Positions 29,536-63,284 of a stretch of DNA of 64,000 nucleotides are shown here, one piece after another. Within the stretch, counting starts at the first letter, position 1, and every line of letters starts with the position of its first letter. The position numbers were made by a program, and so were the translations under genes. The notes under the pieces are model-generated. The model made no database searches. It was not told the origin of the DNA and worked only from the letters and a program-made list of their open reading frames with translations. The stretch covers positions 56,019 to 120,018 of the forward strand of contig CALJGI010000015.1 in assembly GCA_938074045.1 (NCBI GenBank). Reading direction: 5' to 3'. This stretch comes from an uncultured Halieaceae bacterium (GTDB lineage: Bacteria > Pseudomonadota > Gammaproteobacteria > Pseudomonadales > Halieaceae).

Positions 29536-29603
29536 CAGACCTCCGGCCCAGGGTGTTCCATATATCGCGCGGGAGGTTTAGCTATCCTCCCTGGCATAGA
29601 GTG

Positions 29604-47978: not shown

Positions 47979-50234
47979 ATGAAGTTCAGTACAGTTTTTA
48001 AGCGTGTCTTGTCGACTCTGGTTTTTCTCATGATCTGCAGCCCCTCCGTGGCTGCGCCGTTTTCTGCATGCCCCAATGAGGCATTTCTGACTCAGGGCAA
48101 ACCAGGGGTGCTCTATGGCGTTAATCTGACCAGTGGGCAGTACGATTTACTGAGCGAACTCAACACCGTGAATAAACTCAATGGTATGGGCTTTAATTAC
48201 CATGATGGCTATTTATACGCCTGGTATTATGAAGGGCAGACCCTCGCCAGAATTCATGCCGACTACTCCATAGAGCCGCTTACCCTGCAGCCGGCTTTGT
48301 CGCTGCAATACTACGTAGGTGACACTTCAGTTGCGGAAAATGCGCACTTCCTGTATCGAAAAAATGGAGATGACGGTGGACTTTGGCGCATAGAGCTTGA
48401 CCCGTCCGGGCAGGATTATCTTGCGGCGACTCGGATAGCCACCACCAGCAACCTCTACCTCAACATATTCGATATGGCTTTTCACCCATCGGACGGCTTT
48501 ATCTACAGCGTGGATAATATCGGTCGCCTGTACCGAATATCACCCGCCAATGGCAGCAGGACCGTGTTAGGAAATGTCGGTGAGTCAGGCACCTTTGGTG
48601 CGGTTTACTTTGATGCGGGTGGTCAGCTTTATATCAGTCGAAATCAGGATGGTCGTATTTTCAGAATTGACCCAAATGACGCGTCACCCACGGCTCAGTT
48701 CTTTTCCTATGGGCCAGCGTCCAGCAACAACGATGGCGCTCGATGCGCTCTGGCACCGGTTGCTGAGCCGGCGACGCCCTCTATGGATTTCGGTGATGCG
48801 CCCATCAGCTACGGCACCCGCATGGCGGAGAATGGCGCTCGCCATGTGGTAGTCAGTGGTATTCGACTGGGTGGCAAGATAGATGCTGAGAACAGGGCTT
48901 TCCTGGCGCCAGACGAGTCCGATGATGCCAAGGATGGCAGCGATGATGAAGATGGCGTGCAGGTTGTGACATCCATTACCCAGGGTGAGCAGGCAATTTT
49001 GCAGGTGGCTACCACTGGCAATGGGTTCCTGAATGTATGGATTGATCTGGACCGTAACGGTACTTTTGATGGCGCTGATCAGTTGGTCACAGATCTGGAG
49101 CTGTCAGGCTCGACACATTTTGTCACCATGGATGTACCTGCGGAATCTGCCATTGGACCAAGCTGGATGCGGGTACGCTACGCCAGCACCGTGGGCCTGT
49201 CTGCAACCGGAGCAGCGAGTGATGGTGAGGTTGAAGACTATCCCATCGAAATCACGCGACCTTCAACTAAGGTAGAGTATTACCCTTCAGAATCCGGGGT
49301 GGTAACCGTCGCCTTTGAGGATCTTTGGCCATCGGTCGGTGACTACGATCTGAATGATCTCGTAGTCTATTTGCGTACCTCCATCACATCAGACACAGAC
49401 GCTGGACAGCGGATCAGACAGATATCGGTTGAAGGTGAGTTTGCCGCGGTTGGGGCGGCATTTCACAGTGGCTTTGCCATTGCCATTCCCGGGCTCAAGA
49501 CTAAAGACGTAGATTATGCCAAGACGGAATTGCTAATAGATGGAAAAATTCCAACCGCTGTATCTGGCGGTACCATTGGGGAATTTCAGCCATTACAGGG
49601 AATAGCTATTGCGCAAAATCAGAATGCGCTGTTTGAGATAACCAGAGATTTGTGGAACGTTGTTGAAAAAGGTGAAGGCTGTGCCTTTTTCCGTTCCGAT
49701 AATAACTGTGGTGCGGCGAACAGAGTGCCGTTCTCGTTGGTGATCCCGGTGGTAGGTAACGTCCCCTTGTCGTCAATCGAGAAAGGAGCGTTTGATCCGT
49801 TTTTATTTGCAACCACGGGCTACGGAAGAAGCAGCATATTTGTGGACAGCCAGGGTAATCCATTGGCGCCCGGAGATGGGCTCGAAATCCACCTCAAAAA
49901 TCAATTGCCAACCTGGCGTGCTGATCAGGCTTTGCTGGGACGGTCTTCTGATCGCTCACAGTCCGCCACGCTTAATGCCGCGGGTAGTCCCGTCAGCTAT
50001 CAGACAGCCAACGGTTTGCCATGGGCAATTGAGGTGCCTGCCAGGTGGTGTTATCCCTCCGAATATCAGGATCTATCAATCGCATATCCTGATTTTCCGT
50101 TGTTTGTGCTCAGTAACGGCACCCAGGCCAGGAACTGGTATGTCGTCGGCAATGCCGCTTCACACCCCACCCGGGGAGCAGCGGGATATCTCTACAAACA
50201 AGACGGTTTGCTTGATGCAAGTTGTGCGCAATAA
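47979..50234 (+). CDS. Secreted LruC-domain protein with GEVED domain and N-terminal repeat (DUF6923-like) region
   Basis: It has a signal peptide ending SVAAP and repeated ...DGxLY... propeller-like units. DFGDAPISYG...DDEDGV...DGEVEDY marks a GEVED domain, and VAFEDLWPSVGDYDLNDLVV is the LruC/DUF4842 signature. Confidence 0.75.
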   Translation: MKFSTVFKRVLSTLVFLMICSPSVAAPFSACPNEAFLTQGKPGVLYGVNLTSGQYDLLSELNTVNKLNGMGFNYHDGYLYAWYYEGQTLARIHADYSIEPLTLQPALSLQYYVGDTSVAENAHFLYRKNGDDGGLWRIELDPSGQDYLAATRIATTSNLYLNIFDMAFHPSDGFIYSVDNIGRLYRISPANGSRTVLGNVGESGTFGAVYFDAGGQLYISRNQDGRIFRIDPNDASPTAQFFSYGPASSNNDGARCALAPVAEPATPSMDFGDAPISYGTRMAENGARHVVVSGIRLGGKIDAENRAFLAPDESDDAKDGSDDEDGVQVVTSITQGEQAILQVATTGNGFLNVWIDLDRNGTFDGADQLVTDLELSGSTHFVTMDVPAESAIGPSWMRVRYASTVGLSATGAASDGEVEDYPIEITRPSTKVEYYPSESGVVTVAFEDLWPSVGDYDLNDLVVYLRTSITSDTDAGQRIRQISVEGEFAAVGAAFHSGFAIAIPGLKTKDVDYAKTELLIDGKIPTAVSGGTIGEFQPLQGIAIAQNQNALFEITRDLWNVVEKGEGCAFFRSDNNCGAANRVPFSLVIPVVGNVPLSSIEKGAFDPFLFATTGYGRSSIFVDSQGNPLAPGDGLEIHLKNQLPTWRADQALLGRSSDRSQSATLNAAGSPVSYQTANGLPWAIEVPARWCYPSEYQDLSIAYPDFPLFVLSNGTQARNWYVVGNAASHPTRGAAGYLYKQDGLLDASCAQ

Positions 50235-50264
50235 CTATTGGATCACCATCGGGAAGAAACCACA

Positions 50265-51203
50265 ATGAAACACGATTATAGACGGAACATTTACATCAGT
50301 GCTGCCTTTGCCATTGGCTTGAATACGTCGGGATGTGTATACACGTCCTTGTCGTCATCCACGCATGCTGAGCTATATCGCTGGGATGATAGCGGCTTGA
50401 CACTCGTTGCCAGTAGAAACGTTATGGAAGACCGTGAATCGAATCGATACTTCAACTTCTCAGACATCCTCATAAAAGACAAAACGCTGGAACAGCTTGG
50501 TGATGCACCTTACGTATTCAGAAGCTGTGATGTGGCTGTATGCCATGAAATAGTACTGTTCCACGACAACGTGGAGGAAGGACCGCACAATCTGCTGATC
50601 GGTGGGTTTGCAGCGTCCGGGTTGTCCACGGCAATGTACCGTGAGGTAGCTGATCTGGACCCAGCTGATGCCCGGCAGGCCCTCAATGAGTTGGCGGCAC
50701 AATTGCTTCGTGAGCCAGGACTGGATAATCACTATACAGAATTTGTGCAGCTCGACCTGAGCGCGGCGCAGGATAATGCGAAACTCAAGAGTGTTGCCTG
50801 GGAAAGTTATGCTCAGGAGGCGATAAGCTCAGGAGAGGAGATGTCGATAAATCAGATCGTACGTTCCAGTGTTACCGCTACGCGAGATCTATCAAGCGAC
50901 GCTGATTTTACGTTCTCCACAGCGCAGAACATTTTTCTGGATATCGATGTATCGGAACGCATGACAGACAATGTTCATTTATCTGTATGCGGAGACTTCC
51001 AGAAGTCAGGTATTGGTTACCTGGTGAACTATGCTGACTGTCAATTGAAAGTGATGATGTTAGATGGCAGCTACCAGGGTAGTTTACGACAATCTCAGGC
51101 AGGGGGAGAGCTCCTGATTACCCTACTGCCGGTCAGCAGCCCGGAAGATATTGAGTATTTTCTGTGGGACAGTGCGGTTGAAAATATATTTTCTGTGCGG
51201 TGA
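50265..51203 (+). CDS. Hypothetical lipoprotein
   Basis: MKHDYRRNIYISAAFAIGLNTSGC has a lipobox-like end. The gene follows the LruC gene by 30 nt. I recognised no family. Confidence 0.55.
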   Translation: MKHDYRRNIYISAAFAIGLNTSGCVYTSLSSSTHAELYRWDDSGLTLVASRNVMEDRESNRYFNFSDILIKDKTLEQLGDAPYVFRSCDVAVCHEIVLFHDNVEEGPHNLLIGGFAASGLSTAMYREVADLDPADARQALNELAAQLLREPGLDNHYTEFVQLDLSAAQDNAKLKSVAWESYAQEAISSGEEMSINQIVRSSVTATRDLSSDADFTFSTAQNIFLDIDVSERMTDNVHLSVCGDFQKSGIGYLVNYADCQLKVMMLDGSYQGSLRQSQAGGELLITLLPVSSPEDIEYFLWDSAVENIFSVR

Positions 51204-51318: not shown

Positions 51319-51978
51319 TTAGTAAGCGCCTCGCGCTGACAGCACTGCGGGCACTGTGCGGATAAGAATGAGGAGGTCGGTCAATACAGAGCGGTTGTCG
51401 ATATACTCCAGATCCAGTCGTACCTGATCAGTGAAGGGTAGCTCAGATCTTCCGGATATTTGCCAAAGGCAGGTAATCCCCGGTACAACGGCGAGGCGCT
51501 GCATCTCGTAGCTGCTGTATTCGGCAACTTCGGAAGGAATTGGTGGGCGGGGGCCAACCAGCGTCATATCACCAGAAACAACATTCCACAGTTGCGGCAG
51601 CTCGTCGACTGAAAACTTTCTGATCCATTTCCCAAGCCGGGTGATACGTGGATCCTGGCGTATCTTGAAAGTGGGGCCGTCACTGATTTCATTGCTGTCT
51701 GACAGCATGTTTTTAATTGCTTCGGCGTCTACCACCATTGACCTGAACTTCCAGCACGTGAAATGGCTGCCGTCTTTTCCTACCCTCGTCTGTCCGAAAA
51801 GGACTGGCCCTGGACTGTCTAATTTAAGCGCTGCTGCTACCAGCAGTAGGAAGGGTAGGGCTACCAGCAGAGCGATGCCTGCCACAGCTATATCTATGGC
51901 TCGCTTGATCATTTCATAGGTGGTAACAGATTGGATGTGCAGGGTTGAGTAGGCCCACAGGTTTGTTATTCGTTGCAT
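51319..51978 (-). CDS. Polyprenyl-phosphate sugar-phosphate transferase (Bac_transf family; WbaP C-terminal-domain-like priming enzyme)
   Basis: It has the motifs KRAIDIAVAGIALLV, SPGPVLFGQTRVG, FKIRQDPRITRLG, DELPQLWNV..GDMTLVGPRP. I chose ATG 51978 (GGAGA upstream) because ATG 52014 would lie upstream of the predicted sigma-54 transcription start. ATG 51912 is also possible. Confidence 0.85.
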   Translation of the reverse strand: MQRITNLWAYSTLHIQSVTTYEMIKRAIDIAVAGIALLVALPFLLLVAAALKLDSPGPVLFGQTRVGKDGSHFTCWKFRSMVVDAEAIKNMLSDSNEISDGPTFKIRQDPRITRLGKWIRKFSVDELPQLWNVVSGDMTLVGPRPPIPSEVAEYSSYEMQRLAVVPGITCLWQISGRSELPFTDQVRLDLEYIDNRSVLTDLLILIRTVPAVLSARGAY

Positions 51979-52020
51979 TGTAGAGTTCTCCAGAATGTCC
52001 TTGTTGACACTCATCTACGT

Positions 52021-52113: not shown

Positions 52114-52244
52114 AGCCTTCTGCAACTCATGCTGCGCCATGCTAATAAATCCGGTCGCTACGAATTCTGCGTTGCTAGGCTCAGAACCTATAAAAACAGT
52201 AATTTTTGAGTATTTTTTACGGCTTTATTTGGCGTCAGGAAAAC

Positions 52245-52260
52245 TGGCACGAACTCTGCA
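52245..52260 (+). promoter_or_regulatory. Sigma-54 (-24/-12) promoter candidate for the DUF6492-GT4-flippase-sulfotransferase operon
   Basis: The sequence is CTGGCACG-AACT-CTGCA, with invariant GG and GC at the correct spacing and one mismatch to TTGC. The predicted +1 is near 52271, the RBS GGAGAG is at 52283-52288 and the ATG is at 52296. Confidence 0.6.
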
Positions 52261-52295
52261 TTCCCTTGTGTAGATGCCAATTGGAGAGACTAAAA

Positions 52296-53174
52296 ATGCA
52301 GCAAGAGAAGTTGACCGAGACAGATATAGCGCTGGTCACGTGTTCATACGGCCCAGATTTTAAGCGTTGCCAGCGGCTGTGCGCCAGTGTGGACCAGTAT
52401 GTACCTGCGGCGATTGAACATATTCTGGTGGTCCCAGCAGAAGATCAAAAACTATTCAGTCAATTAGGTACTGGCAATCGAGTCATTGTCAGCGTTGAAG
52501 ACACTCTTCCATGTCGCTTCTCCCGAATTCCAATGACGAGAAAGTGGTGGCTGGGACCAAACTTTTGGCCCGTTCGCGGATGGATGTTGCAACAGCTCAC
52601 CAAATTGAGCGCGGACAGGCTGACGGACCGAGAGCTCATCATGTTTGTGGATTCGGACATCGAGTTTATTCGACCGCTGCTGACAGGACTGATTGTGCAA
52701 GGGGAATTGTGCCGACTGCACCGTCATCCTGGAGAGAAAAATACTGGAGAACACCTTAGGTGGCATCACATGGCAGCAGAGGTCCTCGATCTACCTAAAC
52801 AGTACTTCGGTAGTGATTATATTGCGCCTCTGGTCACATGGCGAAGAAGCAATCTGATCAGCTTGAAAAACATTATGCAGATACGTTCACAGCTGCCATG
52901 GCATGAATTATTGCTGCGGCGATTAACTATGTCTGAGTACATTTTATATGGAGTTTATGTTGAACATGTGTTGGGCGAGGACAACAACGGCCATTTCCCG
53001 GACGATGGGACACTTTGTCATTGCTGTTGGTTTGGTGAAGACGCCAATTTGTTGAATCGTGAACAGCGCGTCAGTGATTCTTCCCTTGCGGTTCTCATTC
53101 AATCCAATATCGGCCTGTCTGTTGATCATGTCGATGCCTTGATGCAGCAAGTACGCACCCAACTGGCACGTTAG
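52296..53174 (+). CDS. DUF6492-like protein, putative GT-A-like nucleotide-sugar transferase
   Basis: It has IALVTCSYGPDF... and a DxD-like motif FVDSDIEF. It is the first gene of the plus-strand polysaccharide operon. The family call is from memory. Confidence 0.5.
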   Translation: MQQEKLTETDIALVTCSYGPDFKRCQRLCASVDQYVPAAIEHILVVPAEDQKLFSQLGTGNRVIVSVEDTLPCRFSRIPMTRKWWLGPNFWPVRGWMLQQLTKLSADRLTDRELIMFVDSDIEFIRPLLTGLIVQGELCRLHRHPGEKNTGEHLRWHHMAAEVLDLPKQYFGSDYIAPLVTWRRSNLISLKNIMQIRSQLPWHELLLRRLTMSEYILYGVYVEHVLGEDNNGHFPDDGTLCHCCWFGEDANLLNREQRVSDSSLAVLIQSNIGLSVDHVDALMQQVRTQLAR

Positions 53175-53186
53175 GAGACACCCGTG

Positions 53187-54440
53187 ATGAAGAAAATGCT
53201 GTTTCTAACATCGGAATTACCCTGGCCATTGCATAGTGGTGGTAAATTAAAGACCTTCAAGCTGCTGGAATCACTGGCATCAAAGTATGATGTAACACTC
53301 GTATGCCCTTTGAAAGGTGAAGACGAGCAATATCTCAATGAGTTTTGTCGTCTATCGCCATGCCGAATTCATCTGCATGAGCCCGTTGATCGTGCCAGAA
53401 ATGCGACTAACCTGGTAAAGAGCTATATCGCCGGTGTACCACTGAATGTACTGCGGAGTTATAGCGAGCAGTTGGCGTCGAGGACACGCAAAATAGCTGC
53501 ACACTTCGACGTGATCTTTCTCGATCACTATGAGTTGCATTACTACATACCGCAATCTCAGTTTGGGAAAGTGATTTATCACGCTCACAACACCTACCAC
53601 AAGATTTGGCAAACCTACGCGGCGACGCCAGGCAATATCTTATTTAGAGCGGCTGCATGGCTGGAGTTTAAGCGGGTTAAGACCTGCGAGAAGCGGCTGT
53701 GTAAAAAGGTAAGGTTAGTACTGGCTGCACCTGGCGATATTGAAATCCTGAGTCAGGGTTTGTCAGGCTCCGTGCCATTCCACCCGACATACCACTTGGG
53801 AAACAGCTCTCAGCTGACCATGCCAGATCTGGCGTTTGATCGATCAAAGCATAAGTTGGTCTACGTTGGTTTTCTTGGCTGGGAGCCGAATTCAGCAGGA
53901 CTGTTGTGGTTTATTGAGCGGGTTTGGCCCAGGTTGGTCAATGTGTTTCCCGAGCTTACCTTTGACATTGTAGGCAAAAACCCGGATCAGCGACTGTCTT
54001 CGGCTGTAGCCCAACACCGGGGGATTACGCTCTGTGGCTTTGTTGAAGATCTGGAAACGGTCTACCAGCAAGGGAGTGTTTCTGTTGCCCCTTTGCTGTT
54101 TGGAAGCGGCATGAAAGTTAAGGTATTAGATGCTATGTCCCGCGGATTGCCCGTGGCAACTACCTCGATCGGGGCTGAGAGCATTGCCTGTGACCATGGA
54201 GAGCATCTAATGATCGGCGATACTCCAGAGTTGATGACTGAGAACATTACTCAATTGTTGCGTGATGAAGGGCTATGGAATCGATTGCAGCTCAGTTCTC
54301 GTCAACTTATTCGCGAACACTATACCTGGGAATCCATGTTTTCCGAGATGCACAGGGTGATCGACTGTTTGGATATCTGCGTGACCGACCGCAGAAGTAG
54401 CGACGTGATGTTGCAATTGTCGCTGGTTGGAGAGCGCTAG
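53187..54440 (+). CDS. Glycosyltransferase family 4 (GT-B, Glycos_transf_1)
   Basis: The N-terminus is MKKMLFLTSELPWPLHSGGKL. The C-terminal region LVYVGFLGWEPN...SGMKVKVLDAMSRGLPVATTSIGAE carries an EX7E-like motif. Confidence 0.8.
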   Translation: MKKMLFLTSELPWPLHSGGKLKTFKLLESLASKYDVTLVCPLKGEDEQYLNEFCRLSPCRIHLHEPVDRARNATNLVKSYIAGVPLNVLRSYSEQLASRTRKIAAHFDVIFLDHYELHYYIPQSQFGKVIYHAHNTYHKIWQTYAATPGNILFRAAAWLEFKRVKTCEKRLCKKVRLVLAAPGDIEILSQGLSGSVPFHPTYHLGNSSQLTMPDLAFDRSKHKLVYVGFLGWEPNSAGLLWFIERVWPRLVNVFPELTFDIVGKNPDQRLSSAVAQHRGITLCGFVEDLETVYQQGSVSVAPLLFGSGMKVKVLDAMSRGLPVATTSIGAESIACDHGEHLMIGDTPELMTENITQLLRDEGLWNRLQLSSRQLIREHYTWESMFSEMHRVIDCLDICVTDRRSSDVMLQLSLVGER

Positions 54441-54443
54441 CAC

Positions 54444-55742
54444 ATGACGAGCCTATGCAAAATGAGTGTATTGGCTCTGAGTCGGGGCTTTGCAGTCTGC
54501 GCCCAGTTCGCCGTGCAAATTATAGTGGGTTATGTGGCGGGAGCGGCAGCCCTGGGAAGTTATCAATTGTTTACGGTGTGGTCGGCAATCCTGGGTGAGG
54601 GTATTGGCCGTGGTTTGCCAACCGGTACGATGAAAAAGGTCAGCGTGAATTTTGCAGAGGGAAAGTTATCGTCTATTTCGAATTGGATGGCATGGTCCTG
54701 TCGCGAGATAATCAGAGGTTGCGTGCCTCTCTTTTTACTATTCGTTCTGTTTTCGCTAGCGGCACGGATAGCCGGACTGCAAGTCAGTGATACTGCATTG
54801 GCATTTTGCGGTGGCGTCCTCCTTGCCGCGCCCTTGTTTGCCCTGAGTCGGGTTTATGCTGAAGCATTGAAGGCTATCGAACGACAGGTATTCGCCGTCG
54901 CAGTTGAAAACCTCATGGTCCCTGCATTCATATTGCTGCTGTGTGGTGTCTATGTAATTTTTGGATTGAGCGTCAATGAGGTGGCTCTTTTGATGGCATT
55001 TTCTGCCGCAGTTCTGTCTTCTTATTTGATAATGAGGCGAGCGCTTTTGAGATCCCTTTATGGCCTTTTGAATTCTTCTAAAGGCACAGAGTCTTGCCTG
55101 CCTCATTCTCGGGAGCTTAAGTATTTTTGGTTAATCGGATTACTCAATATTTGTTCATTGCAGATGCCTTTCCTTGTGCTTCCCTTATTCGCAGATTTGG
55201 CGGAGATAGGAGTGTTTGCTTTAGCCTTTAAGTTCATTAATGTGGTCACCACGATTCTCCTACTTTTATCGGCGGTATATAGTCCGCGCATGGCTCGCGC
55301 CGCGGCTATACACGATGTTTCCGGACTCCGCAGTCTGCTGCAGCAGACGCAGCTGATATCTGTGTGCGTATTTGTACCCTTAACCGCGTTTATCTACTTA
55401 AGCAGTGGATATATATCTGAATATCTGGGAGAAGACTTTGTAGGAGTCAAGGCTTTCTATCTTATTCTTGCCGTAGGCTATTTGTTCAATGCGGCGACCG
55501 GGTTACAAGGCGTACTGCTTAACATGGCGGGCGCTGCAAAGTTTGAAACCATTATTTCGGTTATTGTGATGGTAGTGTCTTTTTTTGCAGCGCTGGCATT
55601 CGGTCACCAGTACGGCGTAACTGGCGTTGCCATGGTATTCACCTGTGCTATTGCTTTAAAGAATATAGCGTCATATCTGGTGGCACTGTACTGGTTGAAT
55701 CACCTGGAAGTGGCCTCAAGAGATTTGGTGGTGGCTGTATGA
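54444..55742 (+). CDS. Polysaccharide flippase (Wzx-like, MOP superfamily)
   Basis: The protein is 432 aa with ~12 predicted TM segments and sits inside a glycan locus. It overlaps the sulfotransferase start by ATGA. Confidence 0.7.
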   Translation: MTSLCKMSVLALSRGFAVCAQFAVQIIVGYVAGAAALGSYQLFTVWSAILGEGIGRGLPTGTMKKVSVNFAEGKLSSISNWMAWSCREIIRGCVPLFLLFVLFSLAARIAGLQVSDTALAFCGGVLLAAPLFALSRVYAEALKAIERQVFAVAVENLMVPAFILLLCGVYVIFGLSVNEVALLMAFSAAVLSSYLIMRRALLRSLYGLLNSSKGTESCLPHSRELKYFWLIGLLNICSLQMPFLVLPLFADLAEIGVFALAFKFINVVTTILLLLSAVYSPRMARAAAIHDVSGLRSLLQQTQLISVCVFVPLTAFIYLSSGYISEYLGEDFVGVKAFYLILAVGYLFNAATGLQGVLLNMAGAAKFETIISVIVMVVSFFAALAFGHQYGVTGVAMVFTCAIALKNIASYLVALYWLNHLEVASRDLVVAV

Positions 55743-56689
55743 GAGATACGCGCAGAGAGAACGCTCTGGATTTTGTGATTGTAGGCGCACAAAAATCAGC
55801 AACAACATCTTTGTTTGAAATACTTAAAAACCACCCCCTCATCAGCTTGCCTATTGAAAAGGAAGTGCCGTTTTTTTCTGGTGATGATTTCGACCCCAGG
55901 CTGTGGCCCCGGTTTATGCAGTGTCACTTCGATGCAGCCTCACCCGGACAGATACTGGGAAAAATAAGCCCACAGTACATGTGTGACAGGCGGGTTGCAG
56001 GACGACTGGCCGGGCTGATGCCAGAAGTGCGGGTGATAGCTATATTACGAGATCCCATTGAGCGCAGCTGGTCGCATTTCCAAATGGGTAAGCGGCGGAT
56101 GACTGAGGAGAGGGATTTTTCAGGGGCGGTACGCGAGCTACTGGAGATCGATGCTCAGGAAAAAGCGGTATCACAAACGCCTCCGACCCACGCTGATGGT
56201 TATGAGTCGGAAGGCGATTTTTATCTGGCCTGGAGTGAATATGGTCGCCAGCTTACGGAGTTTTACCAGCACTTCTCCAGCGACCAGATACTGGTGCTTT
56301 TCACAGAAGACCTGAAGCGCGACCCGCAGTTGGTTATTGATCGCGTTCTGGCTTTCATAGGTCTTGCATCCGGTTACTCGCCAGCAAATCTCTCAACCAG
56401 ATCTCACCAGGGCGGGGGCGGTATGAAAATTTCTCACAACGTACGGGAGTGGTTTCGGCAGTGCCCACCCGTAGGTTGGCTGTGGTCACTGGTGCCGCCG
56501 CGTATACAGGGGAGAATCCGGTTCAAATATGAGCAATGGAACATTAGCGGGAGAGACGATCAAATGCCCCTGTGTGATGACCTGCGACAACTCCTTTATT
56601 CGCATTTTGCGAGAGACTTGAATCGCCTGAATGACTATGTCGAGTTGCTGCCGGAATGGAAATCGAGATATCGCCTGGATCTGCAGTAG
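55739..56689 (+). CDS. PAPS-dependent sulfotransferase (heparan-sulfate sulfotransferase-like, Sulfotransfer_1 type)
   Basis: It has the 5'-PSB loop FVIVGAQKSATTSL and the 3'-PB motif ILRDPIERSWSHF. Confidence 0.75.
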   Translation: MRDTRRENALDFVIVGAQKSATTSLFEILKNHPLISLPIEKEVPFFSGDDFDPRLWPRFMQCHFDAASPGQILGKISPQYMCDRRVAGRLAGLMPEVRVIAILRDPIERSWSHFQMGKRRMTEERDFSGAVRELLEIDAQEKAVSQTPPTHADGYESEGDFYLAWSEYGRQLTEFYQHFSSDQILVLFTEDLKRDPQLVIDRVLAFIGLASGYSPANLSTRSHQGGGGMKISHNVREWFRQCPPVGWLWSLVPPRIQGRIRFKYEQWNISGRDDQMPLCDDLRQLLYSHFARDLNRLNDYVELLPEWKSRYRLDLQ

Positions 56690-56707: not shown

Positions 56708-56815
56708 TGCCTCCGGCGACGCCTGCTGATAAATATTCGCAGTAGAAGCTAGTGTTGCTACAGGAATAGCGGTTAAGTTACTGTTATTAAAGCATAAAAG
56801 ATGGGTTGGCCCAAT

Positions 56816-56831
56816 TGGCATTCGCCTTGCA
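56816..56831 (+). promoter_or_regulatory. Sigma-54-like -24/-12 element directly upstream of the exporter gene
   Basis: The sequence is TTGGCAT-TCGCC-TTGCA, with GG and GC at the correct spacing. The predicted +1 (~56842) abuts ATG 56843, so no leader or RBS would exist. Confidence 0.35.
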
Positions 56832-56842
56832 CTACATTGGGT

Positions 56843-59737
56843 ATGAAAACATATATTGCAATTTTCCGAGGGGTTTGTGCCGCCGCACTGGTCGTCTGGA
56901 GCGGGTCTTTGATGGCTTCTACTTATGAACCTTTTGTTGAACCTCTGGCGGCGGAACAACAGCGTCAATACCAGCAAGCAGGTGCGCGGGGTGCGGATGC
57001 TCCCCTGCAACCGCCTCAGGTTCCTCTCACGATAACGGTGCCGTCGGCCGTTGCGTCGACACTCACAGCACTTGACGACTCCGTTACTGATCGTCTGGGT
57101 GCCGTGACGGCGCTGGAGCGGCCGGTTGACCAGAAATTGGACATGCCGTTGCCGCATTTTGGGTATGACCTGTTCAATGTCGTACCGAGCACCTTTGCGC
57201 CGGTTGATAGCATACCAGTGCCGGCTGATTACAAGATCGGCCCTGGTGATACGTTGGTTATCCAACTGTTTGGAAACCGTAATGTTGAATTTACCCTGGT
57301 AGTCACCCGCGATGGTCAGATACTGATCCCTGAATACGGTCCACTGGCGGTAAGTGGGCTAACCTTTGATGAAGCTGAACGGCTGATCGTTGAGGGGTTT
57401 GAGCAGCGGGTTATTGGTGCGAAGGCGGTCGTCTCAATTGGTAAATTGCGCACCATCCAGGTAAGGGTGACTGGTGACGTAAACCAGCCCGGTATCTATA
57501 CCGTGGGCGCTCTGACCACCCTCATCGATGCCCTGATTGTGACGGGCGGAGTAAAGACGACGGGGTCCTTGCGCCGCATTCGGTTATACCGTGGTGATGT
57601 CATGGTCAGTCAGCTCGACTTATACGATCTGCTACTTCGCGGCCACACCAGGGGAGACGCCACACTTCGTCATGGCGACACCATCTTTGTGCCCGCTCTG
57701 GGCCCAGTCGCCTATGTTGCGGGTGAGGTCCAGCGACCCGCTATATACGAGCTGCTAGGCAAAGTTCAGCTGGACTCATTGATCGACATGGCCGGAGGAC
57801 TGCTGCCGGGAGCCTCCCTGACTTCATCTCATATTGAGCGAATCTCAGTTGGTGCAGGCAAGACCATCATTGATCTTGGCTCCATTGGTAAACGTTCTCT
57901 TGAAGATATTACAGTCGTCAATGGTGATCTTCTGCGGGTGCTGCCCAAGGAAGATCGACTGGATAATGTGGTTTTCCTCGAGGGACACGTGCGTCGTCCT
58001 GGTGGTTATCAGTTTCTGGAGCAGATGCGGCTCTCAGAGTTGATCTCAGGTCCAGAGGAATTGCTCCATGGCGCGGATATAGGCTTCGCCGCCATTCGGC
58101 GTGAAAACCCGACCACTCTGCGCACGGAGATAATCTATTTCAAGCCAGAAGAGTTATTTGGAAACCGTGGTGGCGCGCCAGATATTGCGCTCGTTAATCG
58201 CGATGTTGTTATGTTTTTTCGCGCCGCTGAGGCCAGAGAGAAAGTTTTGGCGGGTCTGGTCAAGGAGTTGCGTGAGCAGGCCGGTCACGGCCGACCCCCG
58301 CATACGATCGTTGTCAGTGGCTCGACCAAACATACGGGAACGTTTCCATTGCAAGCGGGAGCGCGATTGCTGGATGTAGTAGCTCTGGCTGGCGGTGTGC
58401 GTAGCGACACCGACCGTGCCTATGTTGTGGTGTCCAGCATGGACGAAGGTGATGACCAACTCTCCATGCGCGCGGTGGATCTTGAAGCGGCTACGCGATT
58501 TCCCGAGCACGATGATAACCTGCTCATTCGCCCGCGAGACAAAATCTATTTCTTTGGCGTGAACTCCGACCGGTCCGCGCTCATGGAGGACGACCTGTAT
58601 ACATTGAGGGAACAAGCAAGGTATGGCGCTGAGGTATTGACTGTGGGTGTGCTGGGTGAGGTATCTGCCCCCGGCACCTATCCTCTTGAGCCCGGCATGC
58701 GGACCAGTGATCTTGTTTGCGCAGCGGGTGGTTTGACCCGAAAGGCTGCTGGACTCAATGCCAGTCTTTCCCGTCACAGCAAGGATGGGCAAAGCCAGAA
58801 GCTGGTAGAGCATATCCAGATCGATATCGTGGCATTACTCAGCTTGTGTGAATATAGATTAGCGGTAAAACGGGGTGATGCCCTTTCGGAGGCACAGCAC
58901 CTCTACATGTCCCGGCTGGCTGAAATGGCTGACGATTATGTGCTGCAACCGATGGATCAGCTGGCGGTTAGTGTCAAGGCAAACTGGGTTGAAAAGTCGG
59001 TCGTGTATCTATCTGGTGAAGTGATTAATCCAGGTTCTTACGTTATTGATCCTGGAGAAACTCTTTGTGAAGTGCTGCAAAGAGCTGGTGGTATTACTAA
59101 TCGCGCTTATCTCCTGGGTGCTGTATTTACCCGTCAATCTGCTCTGGAAATGCAACAAAAAACCATCGAGCAGATACAGGGGCAACTGGATGAGCTAATG
59201 GTTGAGTTGTCGCTTTCTCACTCTGCACGCAACGCAGAAAAGAATGCCGAAAATGTGGGTGACAAGCGGGATTATCTGAACGTCATTAATCAGTTGGAAC
59301 GAGCCAAGCCTACTGGTCGGGTAGTGATTGATCTTGAGGAGCAATTGCGCTGTCGGCGCAAGTCGCAAATGGCGTTGCAAGACGGGGATCGACTGGAAGT
59401 CCCCATTCGACCTGACTTTGTCATGGTTTCCGGACAGGTATACGTGCCGACCAGTCAGCAGTACACGAAGGAAAGAACCGTCGCTGACTATGTAAAGCTC
59501 AGTGGGGGTCACACAGTATTGGGGCGACTTAACGACACATTTGTTATTCAGCCCAATGGTGAAGTATTGAACTATAGCGGAAGACGTCGCTCGTCCTCTA
59601 TTGCGCACAGGCATGTTATGCCCGGCGCCAGAATTTTTGTGCCGCTGAACGTGGATCGAATGAATGCCACTGAGAAGGCGCAGAGCTGGGTTAGCTCGCT
59701 GACGCAGGCAGCTTTGTTGGCGGGGTTGGTGTTGTGA
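56843..59737 (+). CDS. Very large outer-membrane polysaccharide export protein (Wza/OPX family; Poly_export domain plus about seven SLBB repeats)
   Basis: It has a signal peptide MKTYIAIFRGVCAAALVVWSGSLMA and the Poly_export motif YKIGPGDTLVIQLFGN. Iterated G-x-V-x2-PG-x-Y units are present (VTGDVNQPGIYTV, VAGEVQRPAIYEL, LEGHVRRPGGYQF, VSGSTKHTGTFPL, LGEVSAPGTYPL, LSGEVINPGSYVI, VSGQVYVPTSQQY). The C-terminus is hydrophobic (WVSSLTQAALLAGLVL). Confidence 0.8.
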   Translation: MKTYIAIFRGVCAAALVVWSGSLMASTYEPFVEPLAAEQQRQYQQAGARGADAPLQPPQVPLTITVPSAVASTLTALDDSVTDRLGAVTALERPVDQKLDMPLPHFGYDLFNVVPSTFAPVDSIPVPADYKIGPGDTLVIQLFGNRNVEFTLVVTRDGQILIPEYGPLAVSGLTFDEAERLIVEGFEQRVIGAKAVVSIGKLRTIQVRVTGDVNQPGIYTVGALTTLIDALIVTGGVKTTGSLRRIRLYRGDVMVSQLDLYDLLLRGHTRGDATLRHGDTIFVPALGPVAYVAGEVQRPAIYELLGKVQLDSLIDMAGGLLPGASLTSSHIERISVGAGKTIIDLGSIGKRSLEDITVVNGDLLRVLPKEDRLDNVVFLEGHVRRPGGYQFLEQMRLSELISGPEELLHGADIGFAAIRRENPTTLRTEIIYFKPEELFGNRGGAPDIALVNRDVVMFFRAAEAREKVLAGLVKELREQAGHGRPPHTIVVSGSTKHTGTFPLQAGARLLDVVALAGGVRSDTDRAYVVVSSMDEGDDQLSMRAVDLEAATRFPEHDDNLLIRPRDKIYFFGVNSDRSALMEDDLYTLREQARYGAEVLTVGVLGEVSAPGTYPLEPGMRTSDLVCAAGGLTRKAAGLNASLSRHSKDGQSQKLVEHIQIDIVALLSLCEYRLAVKRGDALSEAQHLYMSRLAEMADDYVLQPMDQLAVSVKANWVEKSVVYLSGEVINPGSYVIDPGETLCEVLQRAGGITNRAYLLGAVFTRQSALEMQQKTIEQIQGQLDELMVELSLSHSARNAEKNAENVGDKRDYLNVINQLERAKPTGRVVIDLEEQLRCRRKSQMALQDGDRLEVPIRPDFVMVSGQVYVPTSQQYTKERTVADYVKLSGGHTVLGRLNDTFVIQPNGEVLNYSGRRRSSSIAHRHVMPGARIFVPLNVDRMNATEKAQSWVSSLTQAALLAGLVL

Positions 59738-60678
59738 TGATCAATCACTCAGAGCACTTGGTTGCGCCTCCGACCGCTGCGTTGGAAATAGACCTGTGGC
59801 CCTATGTGGCTGCGCTGTTGGAATCCTGGCGTTTGGTATTGATGGCGGGTGTGCTCGCTGGAGCACTGGCTTATGTTGCTGGACAGATGGCGTCGCCCCT
59901 GTATGAGTCATCAGCGCGAATCAGCGTTGTGGATATCGAGGATCCGGGCGGCGTGTCACCGGATGATCGGCGGGCACCAGAAGTGCTCACCCTGGTGGAG
60001 CATGGATTCATCATGGGTACTACGCGAGATAATTATGACCAGGTGATGTTGGCCCGCTTGCGATCGCGTCAGTTTGCGCAGCTTTTTCTGGACACATTCA
60101 ATATTTATAAGCATATGTTTCCGGAGCATTGGGACAACGTGCAGGACGATTGGAAGAACGGTTTCGAACTGGACCGTGGACTCGCCTTTACAATATTCAG
60201 AGACAGTGTTCGCCTGATCGAGCATGACGAAGAGACCGACATAATCACTGTGAAAATGCAGTGGCCAGATGCGCTCCTGGCAAAAGAATGGGTGAATAAT
60301 TACATCGTTTTATTCAACGACTACATGCGAAAAAAGACTCTTGGCGACGTCGAAAAAAAGCAGAGCTTTCTGATCGAGGAATTGAAGAAGTCGGAGTTGG
60401 TAGATATTGAACGTTCGATATACCGATTGATAGAAGCACAGACTGCGATCGCCATGCTGGCGCATGCGCGCGAGGAATATGTACTGGAAGTCATAGACCC
60501 GGGTGCACTGCCCTACGCGAGCGTGAGTATGTCCCCAAGGAAAAGAGCGCTGTTGGGTTTTATGACCGGCTTGTTGCTGTCTGTTTTCTTCTTGTTTTGC
60601 AAAATCTTATTGATTCGTTTACTGGCGCGTTTTCGCCAACATCAAGAGACCTATCAGGTCGATATTTATGAGAAATGA
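59734..60678 (+). CDS. Wzz-like polysaccharide co-polymerase / chain-length determinant (no kinase domain)
   Basis: It has an N-terminal Wzz motif region with TM1 (WRLVLMAGVLAGALAYVA), a coiled-coil periplasmic region and a C-terminal TM segment (LLGFMTGLLLSVFFLF). It overlaps the exporter stop. Confidence 0.7.
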   Translation: MMINHSEHLVAPPTAALEIDLWPYVAALLESWRLVLMAGVLAGALAYVAGQMASPLYESSARISVVDIEDPGGVSPDDRRAPEVLTLVEHGFIMGTTRDNYDQVMLARLRSRQFAQLFLDTFNIYKHMFPEHWDNVQDDWKNGFELDRGLAFTIFRDSVRLIEHDEETDIITVKMQWPDALLAKEWVNNYIVLFNDYMRKKTLGDVEKKQSFLIEELKKSELVDIERSIYRLIEAQTAIAMLAHAREEYVLEVIDPGALPYASVSMSPRKRALLGFMTGLLLSVFFLFCKILLIRLLARFRQHQETYQVDIYEK

Positions 60679-62254
60679 TATGACACATGCAGCTCTTTAT
60701 GACGAACGTCAGTTTGTTAATTCGCTCGGTATTCCAGTGGATAACCTGACAATGCACGAGGCGGTGGAAGAGGTGATCAAACTCGCCAGACGTAGGGATG
60801 GCAGATCCCGCTGGGTAGCGACTCTGAATGTTGATTTTCTGACCAATTCACTGGGGTTTGGTTTTGCAAAGCCTCGGCACCCCGAACTGCTGGACGTACT
60901 CAGAAACTCGGATCTTGTGACCGCCGACGGATTTCCGATTCTGTGGCTGAGCCGGATGACGGGCCATACCCTCAAACAGCGTGTAACCGGTGCAGATCTT
61001 ATGCCAGCTATCGCAGCGCGTTCCGCTCAAGAAGGCTTGTCTTTGTATTTGTTGGGTGGAGCGCCAGGAAGCGCAGAGGACGCTGCTGCGATTTTGCAGG
61101 AGCAAAATCCCGGCCTGGCGATAGCTGGATGCGCTGCACCATACATTTCAACTTCAGGACCACAGCTGGTCAATTGGTCAGATGATGATGATGCCATAGT
61201 GGAATTGATCAACAGCTCTGGCGCCGATGTTCTCTTTATTGGATTGGGCAATCCCAAGCAGGAACTATGGTTTAGTCGCAACAGGGAACGTTTGAATGTA
61301 CCTGTATCTATGGGTGTGGGTGGCACCTTCGAGTTTATTACCGGGCGGGTAGCTCGAGCGCCCCAGTTGTTGCAACGCTGTAACCTGGAGTGGGCCTATC
61401 GAATAACGAGGGACCCCCAGCGTCTGTGGAAGCGATATGCGGTGGGTGTTGTAAAGCTGACCATACTTGCAGCGCCTCTATTGTGGCTTCGACTTATAGA
61501 TACTTATTACAACCTTGCACATCCGGTGAAAAAGGGTACTGCGGTTTGGAAAACAATCTGGTCTTCGAAAGCCAGATCGATCCAGCTGTGTCGGCTACCT
61601 GCGCAAGTCATTGATGAGCACTTGATGGACATAGTGCGACGCCAGCGTATGCCATTATGTGGAGACAGTCTTTTGTTTATAGACTTTTCGGCGGTTGATC
61701 ATGTCGACCTGGCGGCGCATCATCATTTTTTCCGCCTGGCGGCATTGGCCGGCAGTCCAGGCCGCGATGTGCAATTGTTGGGTGTTTCACCGGATTTACA
61801 GCGTCGATTAGGCGCGAGCCGGTTGATTGATCTGTTTGATTCCTCTGTTGCGGGTGATTCAATTTCCTCGTTGAGAGATCTGAATTCGGCGGATGAATCT
61901 GGTTTTGGATGCTCCAGTTATGTGCTCGAAAGCAGCGCCATCATCTTTCTCAGCGGCAAGGTTACCGGTGCAAGTCTGAACGGGATCGGATTCCAGGAGT
62001 GTTTGTTACAGAACACCAGGCAACGTACATGTGTTCTGGACATGAGGCGGGTTGATGCCGTGGATACGTCGGGGCTGGCTGAGTTGTATGCGGCTTGCGC
62101 AGCTGCAGCCGAGGAAGGCGGCGCCGTGCTAGTTAGTGGGGCTGGAGAACTCACCAGGCAGGCCATGAGAATCTGTGGCCTGGATTGGCCGGTTGAGTTC
62201 ATTGATGATCTGGAAATGTTGTCCTGGATTGTTGGCGAGGCATCTCGTGCCTGA
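60668..62254 (+). CDS. WecB/TagA/CpsF (GT26) glycosyltransferase fused to two C-terminal STAS domains
   Basis: GT26 motifs occupy aa ~20-262 (GIPVDNLTMHEAV, VATLNVDFL, ADGFPILWLSR, YLLGGAPG, GLGNPKQELW, MGVGGTFEFITGRVARAP, EWAYRITRDPQRLWKRY). STAS1 spans aa ~295-395 (LLFIDFSAVDHVDLAA...VQLLGVSPDLQRRL). STAS2 spans aa ~415-520 (CVLDMRRVDAVDTSGLAEL...VLVSGAGELTRQAMRICGL). Confidence 0.75.
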   Translation: MRNDMTHAALYDERQFVNSLGIPVDNLTMHEAVEEVIKLARRRDGRSRWVATLNVDFLTNSLGFGFAKPRHPELLDVLRNSDLVTADGFPILWLSRMTGHTLKQRVTGADLMPAIAARSAQEGLSLYLLGGAPGSAEDAAAILQEQNPGLAIAGCAAPYISTSGPQLVNWSDDDDAIVELINSSGADVLFIGLGNPKQELWFSRNRERLNVPVSMGVGGTFEFITGRVARAPQLLQRCNLEWAYRITRDPQRLWKRYAVGVVKLTILAAPLLWLRLIDTYYNLAHPVKKGTAVWKTIWSSKARSIQLCRLPAQVIDEHLMDIVRRQRMPLCGDSLLFIDFSAVDHVDLAAHHHFFRLAALAGSPGRDVQLLGVSPDLQRRLGASRLIDLFDSSVAGDSISSLRDLNSADESGFGCSSYVLESSAIIFLSGKVTGASLNGIGFQECLLQNTRQRTCVLDMRRVDAVDTSGLAELYAACAAAAEEGGAVLVSGAGELTRQAMRICGLDWPVEFIDDLEMLSWIVGEASRA

Positions 62255-63284
62255 GTCGCTTACTTATGTTGTGCTGCTCAATTACAACAACTGGCGGGAC
62301 ACGGTTGCCTGTTTAAGTTCACTTTTTCACACCTGTGCCGCGAGGATTCGCGTCGTGGTCTGTGACAACGCCTCTAGTGATGGCAGTCTGGCGCGCATTA
62401 AGCAGTGGGCGGATGGGCATTGTGACGTGGCCGACCTGGGTCACCCAAGACTAAATGCGCTGGTTCAGTCGCATGATCAGGGAATCAGGCACGTGGTTCT
62501 GAATAGTGAATTCCTGGCCACTGATAGATCCCGGCATGAAGGCGTACCATTGGTGTTGATTGATAATGGTTGCAACGGTGGTTTTGCCGCCGGATGCAAT
62601 GTGGGCATGCGCTTCGCTCTTCAGCAGCCGGACATGACCCATGTCTGGCTGCTGAACAATGACACCGTGGTGGAACCGGATTGTCTCGCAGCCATGCACC
62701 GACGTCTAGCGCGCAGTGCATCGGACGCCGTGTGTGGTTCCATGATTCATTTTTTCGATCAGCCCGAGATGATTCAGGCCGTGGGTGGAAATCGATTCAA
62801 CCGGTTCACGGGTGCTGCCGCATGCTCGGAAGGCAGGTTTTTGTCGGAGCACCAAGACATTGATATTGAGCGAATAGAGGCAGAGCTGGACTACCTAAGT
62901 GGTTGTTCAATGCTGTTGCCGCGCCGTTTTCTCGATCAGGTCGGATTGATGAGCGAGGACTATTTTCTTTATTACGAGGAAATTGACTGGTTTACCCGCG
63001 CATCCGGGGCCTATGACTGCCGCATTGCCAGAGATGCGCGCCTGTACCATCGTGAGGGTGGTTCCATTGGTTCTCCCGGGTTGGACCGGCCAACCCCTTC
63101 ACTGCTTGCGGACAAACATATTTTTCGCAGCAAGCACATTTTCATGGCACGGTACTACAAACAGCGCCTGATCTGGTGCTACCTGCATACGGCGATAGAG
63201 GGTCTGAAGCGAGTTCTGAAGGGGCAGTTCAGCAATGCCCGGACCGTATTCTCAGTCCTGTCTGAACGTGCCACCGCCGGTTAG
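62247..63284 (+). CDS. Glycosyltransferase family 2 (rhamnosyltransferase-like)
   Basis: It has YVVLLNYNNWRDT, VVCDNASSDGS, NGGFAAGCNVG and LLNNDTVVEPD motifs. I chose GTG 62247, which overlaps the upstream stop by 8 nt. Confidence 0.8.
   Translation: MPESLTYVVLLNYNNWRDTVACLSSLFHTCAARIRVVVCDNASSDGSLARIKQWADGHCDVADLGHPRLNALVQSHDQGIRHVVLNSEFLATDRSRHEGVPLVLIDNGCNGGFAAGCNVGMRFALQQPDMTHVWLLNNDTVVEPDCLAAMHRRLARSASDAVCGSMIHFFDQPEMIQAVGGNRFNRFTGAAACSEGRFLSEHQDIDIERIEAELDYLSGCSMLLPRRFLDQVGLMSEDYFLYYEEIDWFTRASGAYDCRIARDARLYHREGGSIGSPGLDRPTPSLLADKHIFRSKHIFMARYYKQRLIWCYLHTAIEGLKRVLKGQFSNARTVFSVLSERATAG

Follow-up and report, generated by a model that had tools for sequence, protein, structure and literature searches.

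The 64-kb stretch of Halieaceae DNA described here (the window; all positions are given in nucleotides of this whole stretch) carries on its plus strand an open reading frame (ORF) at 60668..62254 for a protein of 528 aa, in which a glycosyltransferase of family GT26 (WecB/TagA/CpsF) is fused to two consecutive STAS domains. We lean, with modest confidence, towards an active GT26 enzyme with an in-built STAS receiver, the output of which would be set by the phosphorylation of an acceptor residue through a kinase and a receiver-fused SpoIIE phosphatase. An earlier note on this DNA had read the ORF as a GT26 domain followed by two STAS-like modules, and Pfam, AlphaFold and Foldseek bore this out.

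The ORF is unbroken and without a frame change. Among the Pfam families, Glyco_tran_WecG (PF03808) matched aa 81-257 (E=1.1e-60, 204.7 bits versus a cut-off of 27.4), STAS (PF01740) matched two stretches with aa 425-506 as the best (E=4e-14, 52.7 bits), and STAS_2 (PF13466) matched the second STAS module (E=8.8e-12, 45.5 bits). The segment of the first module alone (aa 288-411) passed the PF01740 cut-off marginally (26.2 bits versus 22.6, E=6.8e-6) and stayed under that of PF13466 (24.3 versus 29.2 bits). In order, the plus-strand ORF encodes the GT26 catalytic domain of GT-E fold with its C-terminal appendage (aa 18-259, 60719..61444), a long linker helix (aa 250-284, 61415..61519), the degenerate STAS1 (aa 291-392, 61538..61843), a disordered inter-STAS linker (aa 393-409, 61844..61894) and STAS2, a canonical module resembling anti-sigma antagonists (aa 412-526, 61901..62245). 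An acceptor motif of the antagonist type, Asp followed by Ser/Thr in D-S-x-G-L, is present in STAS2 as D466-T467-S468-G469-L470 within VDAVDTSGL, which begins at aa 462; the candidate phospho-acceptor motif D466-T467-S468-G469 is encoded at 62063..62074, where the earlier note had placed it. STAS1 has no such motif. Its DHVDLAA begins at aa 344, and in D347-L-A-A (61706-61717) Leu348 occupies the position equivalent to the acceptor. The stop codon of the upstream gene lies at 60676-60678 and the codon of Met5 (nt 60680) one base beyond it; since Met5 is invariant among the homologues, it may be the real start of the fusion protein in place of Met1, giving a length of 524 aa.

A merging of a GT26 gene with separate STAS genes by faulty assembly or annotation, which the earlier note had named as a possible flaw, has a negligible probability. 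The reading frame is continuous, and independent assemblies at ENA, Logan and NCBI all contain an identical fusion protein. The architecture is encoded on two complete chromosomes, those of Halioglobus maricola (CP036422) and Congregibacter variabilis (CP136864), the complete genome of Congregibacter brevis (CP136865) carries the gene as well, and several phyla contribute to the at least 61 species representatives with this domain order. The protein, moreover, was modelled as a single confident chain. The same note had asked whether the C-terminal part would score as STAS and take the STAS fold; the hidden Markov models (HMMs) and the topology of the model were both positive.

The AlphaFold2 model of the full-length fusion protein, built with 62 homologues in the alignment, had a mean predicted local distance difference test (pLDDT) of 85.1 and a predicted template-modelling score (pTM) of 0.84. 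The GT26 domain, helix 250-284, a module of aa 291-392, the disordered stretch 393-409 and a module of aa 412-526 follow each other along the chain. A DSSP analysis of the model gave the linker helix and, for both C-terminal modules, the order beta1-beta2-alpha1-beta3-alpha2-beta4-alpha3-(beta5)-alpha4, which is the order of SpoIIAA. Helix alpha2 opens with L348 in STAS1 and with T467 in STAS2; in SpoIIAA the first residue of this helix is known as the site of the phospho-Ser. In a Foldseek search of the PDB the top matches were TagA/TarA (7mpk/5wb4) with template-modelling (TM) scores to the target of 0.89-0.92, a root-mean-square deviation of 1.9-2.0 A and E=5e-16. They were followed by SpoIIAA, a Haliangium antagonist, TM1442 and RsbV, and also by RsbS and 4hyl, with TM scores of 0.75-0.84 (0.77-0.84, with E values of 1e-6 to 1e-4, for SpoIIAA, RsbV and other antagonists), the output not stating whether STAS1 or STAS2 was the aligned module. 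The STAS domains of SLC26/SulP transporters and MlaB ranked behind the SpoIIAA/RsbV antagonists. A separate model of the C-terminal 244 aa (pLDDT 85.2, pTM 0.81) retrieved the same antagonists. The inter-STAS linker fell under a pLDDT of 50 in both models, and the pTM of 0.81 despite this disordered linker therefore indicates that STAS1 and STAS2 pack against each other in the predicted structure.

As judged from its residues, the GT26 domain is probably catalytically active. The phmmer alignment to TagA of T. italicus (7mpk) covered aa 18-259 (E=2.7e-38, 34% identity) and placed T37, D65 and R221 of TagA on T52, D87 (60926-60928) and R252 (61421-61423) of the fusion protein. The 62-sequence alignment shows no variation at any of the three, and D87 and R252 are also unchanged in every one of the species representatives (61/61), whatever their clade. 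Membership in the WecB/TagA/CpsF superfamily was recognised by NCBIfam (TIGR00696, 142.8 bits versus a cut-off of 69). The scores remained far under the equivalog cut-offs for TarA, WecG and EpsA (NF041710, 112 of 350 bits; NF002980, 90 of 323 bits; NF041872, 139 of 500 bits), therefore no sugar specificity was assigned. In TagA, the C-terminal appendage brings Arg221 into the active site and bears a membrane-binding patch, and activation depends on the membrane, with the inactive oligomer giving way to active monomers (PMC6493773); WecG is kept at the membrane by C-terminal helices (PMC9804384). The most hydrophobic 19-mer of the fusion protein, VGVVKLTILAAPLLWLRLI (aa 259-277, Kyte-Doolittle 1.89), is located inside helix 250-284, a probable membrane-interacting segment which prolongs the appendage of the TagA/WecG type. 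The STAS tandem comes straight after this appendage, thus a regulatory module is joined to the part that governs GT26 activation, and the appendage is the probable control point. TagA and WecG act on the product of the priming transferase, that is, in the first committed step (PMC6493773, PMC9804384). In the context of Bac_transf, Wzx and Wzy-like genes, the fusion enzyme is expected to transfer a sugar to a lipid-diphosphate-linked acceptor.

A database search yielded 508 relatives, the best 120 of which were all 489-554 aa long, 46-51% identical and, wherever domains were recorded, equipped with PF03808 plus PF01740 and/or PF13466. They originated from Halioglobus, Congregibacter, Haliea, Oceanicoccus, Pseudomaricurvus and unnamed metagenome-assembled genomes (MAGs). 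In the source databases the homologues are labelled simply as WecB/TagA/CpsF family glycosyltransferases. When 1.84 billion representatives were searched by phmmer with the C-terminal 244 aa as a single sequence, 38 matches resulted; all ten long matches tested among these shared the GT26-STAS-STAS architecture, one with an additional N-terminal GT4 domain. The very narrow family suggested by this number was ruled out by a scan of the GTDB genomes, the low count being caused by sequence divergence of the STAS modules. Among the GTDB species representatives, full-length matches (query residues ~13-519, 32-41% identity) were present in Desulfobacterales/Desulfobacteraceae, Geobacteraceae, Nitrospira, Ca. 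Contendobacter, Thiohalomonas and other Gammaproteobacteria, as well as in Victivallales, Chlamydiales/Parachlamydiaceae and Phycisphaerales. The survey of the phylogenetic distribution proposed in the earlier note thus places the fusion in at least five phyla, namely Gammaproteobacteria, Desulfobacterota, Nitrospirota, Planctomycetota and Chlamydiota/Lentisphaerota.

Several variants of the architecture were encountered. A 931-aa protein on one 13-kb contig of a JGI metagenome (P0123) has the order GT4-GT26-STAS-STAS, as though the cluster's GT4 had been joined to the fusion protein, and is either real or a frame-merge. In a Ca. Contendobacter MAG (L051:1962-4055) a 697-aa GT26-STAS-STAS-NUDIX protein was found, the C-terminal 184 aa of which are the NUDIX domain (E=7e-15); near the receiver-SpoIIE/kinase pair of the loci L090 and L091 there are NUDIX genes too, a hint that a link with the hydrolysis of nucleotide sugars recurs. 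A divergent GT26-STAS-STAS protein (P0145) stands at the end of an exopolysaccharide (EPS) locus of the exosortase EpsH/EpsI (PEP-CTERM) type (L007:5554-8957), so the fusion is not tied to one type of polysaccharide pathway. In a Parachlamydiales MAG, a receiver-SpoIIE gene (L086:3-1277, minus strand) adjoins an unfused GT26 gene of 283 aa (L086:1923-2774), which may be a split form. A GT26 architecture of another kind occurs in Kiritimatiellia/Verrucomicrobia MAGs (L074, L076, L079, L083-L085), where the GT26 domain forms the C-terminus of ORFs of 610-694 aa that begin with ~390 aa of unassigned sequence and stand behind an ORF with a receiver domain.

The putative acceptor of STAS2 is well conserved. 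Among the best 120 of the 508 relatives, the column of T467 contained Ser in 110 and Thr in 7 (117/120 Ser/Thr), the following column Ser/Thr in 113 and the preceding acidic position Glu in 112, while the L348 column of STAS1 was hydrophobic throughout. The claim of the earlier note that STAS1 is non-phosphorylatable consequently stands for the clade of the query, and going by these motifs STAS2 is potentially phosphorylatable in that clade and STAS1 is not. The species representatives gave a wider picture: the STAS2 acceptor was Ser in 34 of 36 Halieaceae-type members and in 22 of 25 from other clades (56/61 overall), and the STAS1 column was hydrophobic in 31 of the 36 Halieaceae-type members and Ser/Thr in 18 of the 25 others. 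In these other clades the acceptors were always preceded by Asp. Outside the query's clade both modules usually carry a canonical [VIM]DSSGL, e.g., VDSSGL twice. A likely history, read from these alignments, is a tandem of two canonical STAS modules, of which STAS1 degenerated in the clade of the query.

The partners expected of such modules were found next to the gene in relatives. A scan covered the 97 ORFs situated no more than 2 kb from the fusion gene in 28 loci outside the Halieaceae and detected receiver domains in 14, HATPase_c_2 in 6, and SpoIIE and Hpt in 5 each. Within this distance an RsbW-type kinase, a SpoIIE phosphatase (as a rule fused to a receiver) or both were encoded in eight of the 28 loci, which belong to two phyla. 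Five gammaproteobacterial lineages (a Taylorina symbiont, BB4, BB34, Thiohalomonas and MAG-626) share the order GT26-STAS-STAS, receiver-SpoIIE (407-430 aa, SpoIIE E=1e-38 to 1e-42) and HATPase_c_2 kinase (131-151 aa, E=1e-20 to 5e-25), the genes being adjacent and co-directional; in a sixth locus, BB36, the contig ends after the receiver part of the phosphatase homologue. In a Phycisphaerales MAG the gene immediately before the fusion gene encodes a HATPase_c_2 kinase, and in Ca. Contendobacter the fusion gene has a SpoIIE gene upstream. By locus, the RsbW-type kinase accompanies homologous fusion genes in L055, L056, L058, L063, L064 and L081, and the phosphatase in L055, L056, L058, L063, L064 and L051, with the receiver part only in L066. 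Parts of hybrid histidine kinases and Hpt domains recur beside the fusion gene in relatives, and in the cluster type of the query too: in Geobacteraceae the fusion gene comes after genes for a hybrid kinase, Hpt and a priming transferase, in this order, and in Nitrospira it stands behind the gene of the priming transferase, a hybrid kinase-Hpt being encoded nearby. The only plausible substrate domains of the fusion protein are its own STAS modules, hence the adjacency supports phospho-control. We regard the neighbouring genes of relatives as strong contextual evidence for a control of the GT26-STAS-STAS enzyme of the partner-switch type.

In BB4 (L056/L091) a hybrid PAS histidine kinase precedes the module, and the locus lies outside any EPS cluster. 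The resulting four genes, for hybrid kinase, GT26-STAS-STAS, receiver-SpoIIE and kinase, form a compact test system. An ECF-type (extracytoplasmic function) sigma factor gene is located ~1 kb past the kinase in the same locus and, together with the canonical function of SpoIIAA and RsbV as the closest folds, could speak for an output role of the STAS tandem: as an anti-sigma antagonist carried by the enzyme, the tandem would titrate an RsbW-like kinase or anti-sigma factor, and the state of the glycosyltransferase, e.g., bound to its substrate at the membrane, would feed back on transcription. We hold this to be highly improbable, as no sigma/anti-sigma pair accompanied the gene in the other loci examined, and the precedent of the STAS protein All4160 of Anabaena is one of an enzyme being regulated, not of regulation by the enzyme (PMC13555669).

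Several observations weigh against phospho-control in the query's own clade. The STAS1 acceptor is lost there, the STAS2 motif is mostly E-S-S-A and not D-S-S-G, a few members of the broader clade with Ala, Gln or Asn at the acceptor retain the same cluster, and the conservation of Ser/Thr at a helix N-cap can have structural grounds alone. With Pfam, no HATPase_c_2 kinase, SpoIIE phosphatase or free STAS was found among the window ORFs of at least 150 aa or among the 75 window ORFs of 85-149 aa. A six-frame scan of the window with local HMMs of the neighbours' kinases and phosphatases gave none either, nor did the same HMMs in the 8 kb downstream of the window and in ~40 Halieaceae-type loci. 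The source-named closest relatives of the cluster-linked phosphatase were Competibacteraceae, Chromatiales-type and other bacteria, with no Halieaceae among them. Of the RsbW/SypE-like kinases envisaged by the earlier note, one of the RsbW type stands beside the fusion genes of several relatives, but none was found in the window, the following 8 kb or the ~40 loci of the clade. Likewise, the proposal of that note that the glycosyltransferase step itself is the regulated target was strengthened by the kinase and phosphatase genes of relatives and by the All4160 precedent, but found no partners at the loci of the query's clade.

These observations suit a STAS tandem that works independently of phosphorylation. 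The Halieaceae-type clade would have lost kinase and phosphatase and kept a constitutive docking or oligomerisation device, which, in the manner of MlaB bound to MlaF or of the STAS dimers in SLC26 transporters, might tether the enzyme to Wzx/Wzy/Wzz or to glycosyltransferases, or might fix its oligomeric state. Weak MlaB-like HMM and fold matches point in the same direction, and the pTM values of 0.81-0.84 suggest a rigid STAS1-STAS2 pair packed on the enzyme. We consider this explanation possible but fairly unlikely. The Ser/Thr in 117 of the 120 close homologues argues against it; the equivalent position in STAS1 tolerates hydrophobic residues while the STAS2 acceptor was kept, so the need for an N-cap alone is no explanation. 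Furthermore, kinase/phosphatase pairs go together with the ancestral and sister forms, and in Anabaena the kinase and phosphatase genes of All4160 are likewise unlinked to all4160 (PMC13555669), therefore the absence of partners from the query's cluster is weak evidence. As no kinase or phosphatase was detected at the loci of the query or its clade, we infer the phosphorylation of T467 in this organism, as well as the direction of its effect and the physical mechanism.

In the phospho-control that we favour, the GT26 domain would add the second sugar to an undecaprenyl-diphosphate-linked primer provided by the Bac_transf enzyme of the cluster, and this transfer would be the first committed step in the repeat unit of a Wzx/Wzy-dependent, probably sulfated exopolysaccharide. 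The STAS tandem, located beyond the membrane-binding and active-site-completing appendage and the hydrophobic helix, would serve as a regulatory receiver of the anti-sigma-antagonist type. An RsbW-type Ser kinase and an opposing receiver-fused SpoIIE/PP2C phosphatase, both presumably encoded elsewhere in the genome, would set the state of T467 in STAS2, which would switch the enzyme output post-translationally on the pattern of All4160. The STAS state would probably act through the appendage by affecting its docking or membrane engagement, or else the kinase would sequester the enzyme. Transcription of the cluster would be under a separate control by the adjacent trio of sigma54 regulator, H-NOX and hybrid kinase-Hpt.

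The fusion gene is part of a tightly packed EPS cluster. Its boundary in the window is a priming phosphoglycosyl transferase gene on the minus strand (Bac_transf, 51319..52014, PF02397 E=1e-65), which is divergently transcribed and conserved in position in L003, L004, L005 and L008. On the plus strand follow the genes for a DUF6492 protein, a GT4 glycosyltransferase, a Wzx-like (MatE-like) flippase and a sulfotransferase (together 52206..56689 by Pfam, the sulfotransferase at 55739-56689), which show synteny and 37-51% identity with Halioglobus maricola. A Wza-like exporter and a Wzz-like co-polymerase are encoded at 56801..60678 on the same strand. The exporter (56801-59737) is unusually large with 978 aa and contains Poly_export, six SLBB and three SLBB_2 stretches; its counterparts in every related cluster have ~930-980 aa, and that of L090 shares 40% identity with it. 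The stop codon of the co-polymerase gene overlaps the start of the fusion gene, and the GTG start of a plus-strand GT2 glycosyltransferase gene (62247..63284, called at L001:3433-4470) overlaps its stop (GTGCCTGA), therefore translational coupling of the latter two is implied. On the organism's own contig, the cluster continues past the window end (through L001:4553-8267) with genes for a 405-aa protein, a sigma54-dependent response regulator and H-NOX; in relatives a hybrid histidine kinase with Hpt comes next. The 405-aa protein had no Pfam match, and the same slot is taken in two relatives by a gene for 436-446 aa, one with a weak Wzy_C match. The 12-gene cluster is kept in four other genomes or MAGs. 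Its gene order is shared by Halioglobus maricola (38-57% protein identity), Congregibacter variabilis and a distant MAG (L008), and a Pseudomaricurvus-type contig shares the cluster with a few genes rearranged. Going by its genes, the cluster probably encodes a Wzx/Wzy-dependent EPS pathway with a sulfated product. Maeda et al. (2021) stated that no sulfotransferases were known from the EPS clusters of other bacteria and regarded sulfated EPS as exclusive to cyanobacteria (PMC8205485). The conserved sulfotransferase-bearing cluster of the abundant marine Halieaceae, under H-NOX/sigma54 control, looks like a gammaproteobacterial, nitric oxide-regulated counterpart of the cyanobacterial ones.

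The sulfotransferase within the cluster gives some ground for a ligand-sensing STAS tandem, which would couple the status of precursors or sulfation to repeat-unit synthesis by binding 3'-phosphoadenosine 5'-phosphosulfate or 3'-phosphoadenosine 5'-phosphate (PAPS/PAP), a sugar nucleotide or guanosine triphosphate (GTP). Some STAS domains bind nucleotides, GTP binding by SpoIIAA being cited in PMC8256260, and NUDIX domains, which hydrolyse nucleotide derivatives, recur beside the module or fused to it. Such sensing of an anionic or nucleotide ligand, which the earlier note had offered as an alternative, appears improbable. The fusion is also present in loci without a sulfotransferase and its structural neighbours are protein-interaction-type antagonists and not SulP STAS domains, therefore this alternative is disfavoured. 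A nucleotide-binding motif was not recognisable in the fusion protein, and the kinase/phosphatase adjacency in relatives favours phospho-control.

Elsewhere in the window, further features were observed. Just upstream of the EPS cluster, 47979-51203 encodes a 751-aa DUF6923/GEVED/DUF4842 protein with a weak DUF4114 match, which may be secreted or surface-located, followed by a 321-aa protein without a Pfam match. A GAF-GGDEF diguanylate cyclase (2508-3530) is a possible cyclic di-GMP input to biofilm or EPS control. The region 13501-18301 carries an ABC transporter ATPase, a 1000-aa ABC-2 permease fused to ABC_transp_aux/DUF7088 and a DUF4340 protein, together a GldG-like auxiliary ABC system. 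Two large ORFs at 27391-30449 (714 aa on the plus strand, 281 aa on the minus strand) belong to no Pfam family, and a WS/DGAT wax-ester synthase/diacylglycerol acyltransferase gene on the minus strand (33677-35263) is typical of marine hydrocarbon- or lipid-storing Gammaproteobacteria.

Compared with TagA/TarA and WecG (PMC6493773, PMC8784642, PMC9804384), the fusion protein has the fold, the Thr/Asp/Arg equivalents and the C-terminal helical appendage in common; TagA and WecG stop after the appendage, whereas the query adds the hydrophobic helix and ~240 aa of STAS modules. With SpoIIAA and RsbV, STAS2 shares the fold and a D-[ST]-[ST]-G-L motif at the N-terminus of helix alpha2, and relatives of the query have RsbW-type kinases and SpoIIE phosphatases beside the gene. 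In contrast to these antagonists, the STAS modules of the query are fused and arranged in tandem, STAS1 is without an acceptor and no sigma/anti-sigma output is evident; the fusion protein also stayed under the TIGR00377 (ant_ant_sig) cut-off with 27.7 versus 53.45 bits.

The syp system of V. fischeri (PMC4517449, PMC8256260, PMC12369376) resembles the query's cluster in its Wza-like and Wzz-like proteins, several glycosyltransferases, a sigma54 regulator and the input by H-NOX and a hybrid kinase. In V. fischeri, syp is controlled by a circuit that runs from HnoX-HahK to SypG (PMC12369376), and the regulatory trio of the query's cluster mirrors this circuit. In syp, too, a STAS protein acts post-transcriptionally on polysaccharide production; SypA, however, is free-standing and SypE is encoded in the locus, whereas the STAS modules of the query are fused and no SypE-like gene is nearby. 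The target of SypA is still described as unknown (PMC4517449, PMC8256260), and in the RtmR preprint sypA serves as a reporter only. A Competibacteraceae-type locus (L090:8423-11762) combines genes for an OmpA-like protein, a free 112-aa STAS protein (IDSTGL), a NUDIX protein, a receiver-SpoIIE phosphatase and a HATPase_c_2 kinase, adjoining a sulfotransferase/Wzx/GT4 set and a Wza/Wzz set, with no GT26 gene within 21 kb. Its phosphatase group is that of Competibacteraceae. That L090 and L038, a locus with a fusion gene of the query's clade, are one DNA, as the equal length of their contigs (43,297 bp) had suggested, was ruled out, since BLAST revealed no shared sequence. The syp locus is not known to contain a GT26 enzyme. 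To judge from its genes, L090 is a split, syp-like counterpart of the fusion, and this makes a Rosetta-stone idea for SypA reasonable. In its widest form, the idea takes GT26-STAS-STAS as a widespread unrecognised class and lets the free STAS proteins of EPS loci, such as SypA and that of L090, likewise dock on a glycosyltransferase of early lipid-linked intermediates. We rate this form as unlikely, yet it says concretely what STAS proteins of the SypA type may target. If true, the long-sought target of SypA would be identified, and phospho-gating of repeat-unit synthesis would be a general bacterial strategy.

Control of EPS formation is usually ascribed to transcription, or to effects of cyclic di-GMP and tyrosine kinases on polymerisation and export. 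It was not until 2026 that a Ser-phospho-switch was shown to act on a biosynthetic enzyme, a single priming transferase from cyanobacteria, and the strategy was considered lineage-specific (PMC13555669). Harada et al. (Mol Microbiol 2026) described All4160 of Anabaena as an N-terminal STAS domain with Bac_transf that is controlled via Ser74 of the STAS domain: the RsbW-type kinase Alr3423 phosphorylates and inactivates the enzyme, the receiver-SpoIIE protein HenR reactivates it, and a non-phosphorylatable allele bypasses HenR (PMC13555669). XssP, from the synthesis of the sulfated EPS synechan, has the same architecture, and STAS plus Bac_transf proteins are rare beyond cyanobacteria (PMC13555669). 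According to PMC8256260, All4160 was flagged as a STAS-glycosyltransferase already in a paper of 2007. A link between STAS domains and glycan assembly is accordingly no conceptual first, being preceded by All4160 and XssP. What is new is the multi-phylum fusion of a STAS tandem to a different, committed-step glycosyltransferase, which is unreported in the literature searched; no paper pairing STAS with WecG, TagA, GT26 or CpsF was found there.

The likeness to Anabaena sp. PCC 7120 All4160/All2285 and Synechocystis XssP consists in the fusion of STAS to a lipid-carrier-dependent enzyme of an early step (PMC13555669, PMC8205485). The set of partners is alike as well, a receiver-SpoIIE phosphatase and a small HATPase_c_2 kinase, which are HenR and Alr3423 there and the products of adjacent genes in relatives of the query. 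For All4160 the output is enzyme activity and not a sigma factor, as is proposed here, and XssP and the query both belong to Wzx/Wzy clusters with sulfotransferases. The differences lie in the build: one N-terminal STAS domain there, two C-terminal ones in the query; a Bac_transf priming transferase there, a GT26 Leloir enzyme of GT-E fold for the second step in the query, which gave no PF02397 match in Pfam and is not a member of the All4160/XssP type; a cyanobacterial distribution there, the at least five phyla of the GTDB scan for the GT26 fusion. GT26-STAS-STAS and All4160/XssP are independent fusion events and not homologous architectures, and they differ in enzyme, step, domain order and the duplication of STAS, with kinase and phosphatase genes next door in several lineages of the GT26 type. 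The multi-phylum GT26 fusion contradicts the published view that only cyanobacteria use STAS domains to control polysaccharide synthesis at the level of the enzyme. The fusion protein of the window, although it stands outside the All4160/XssP class, probably works like one of its members.

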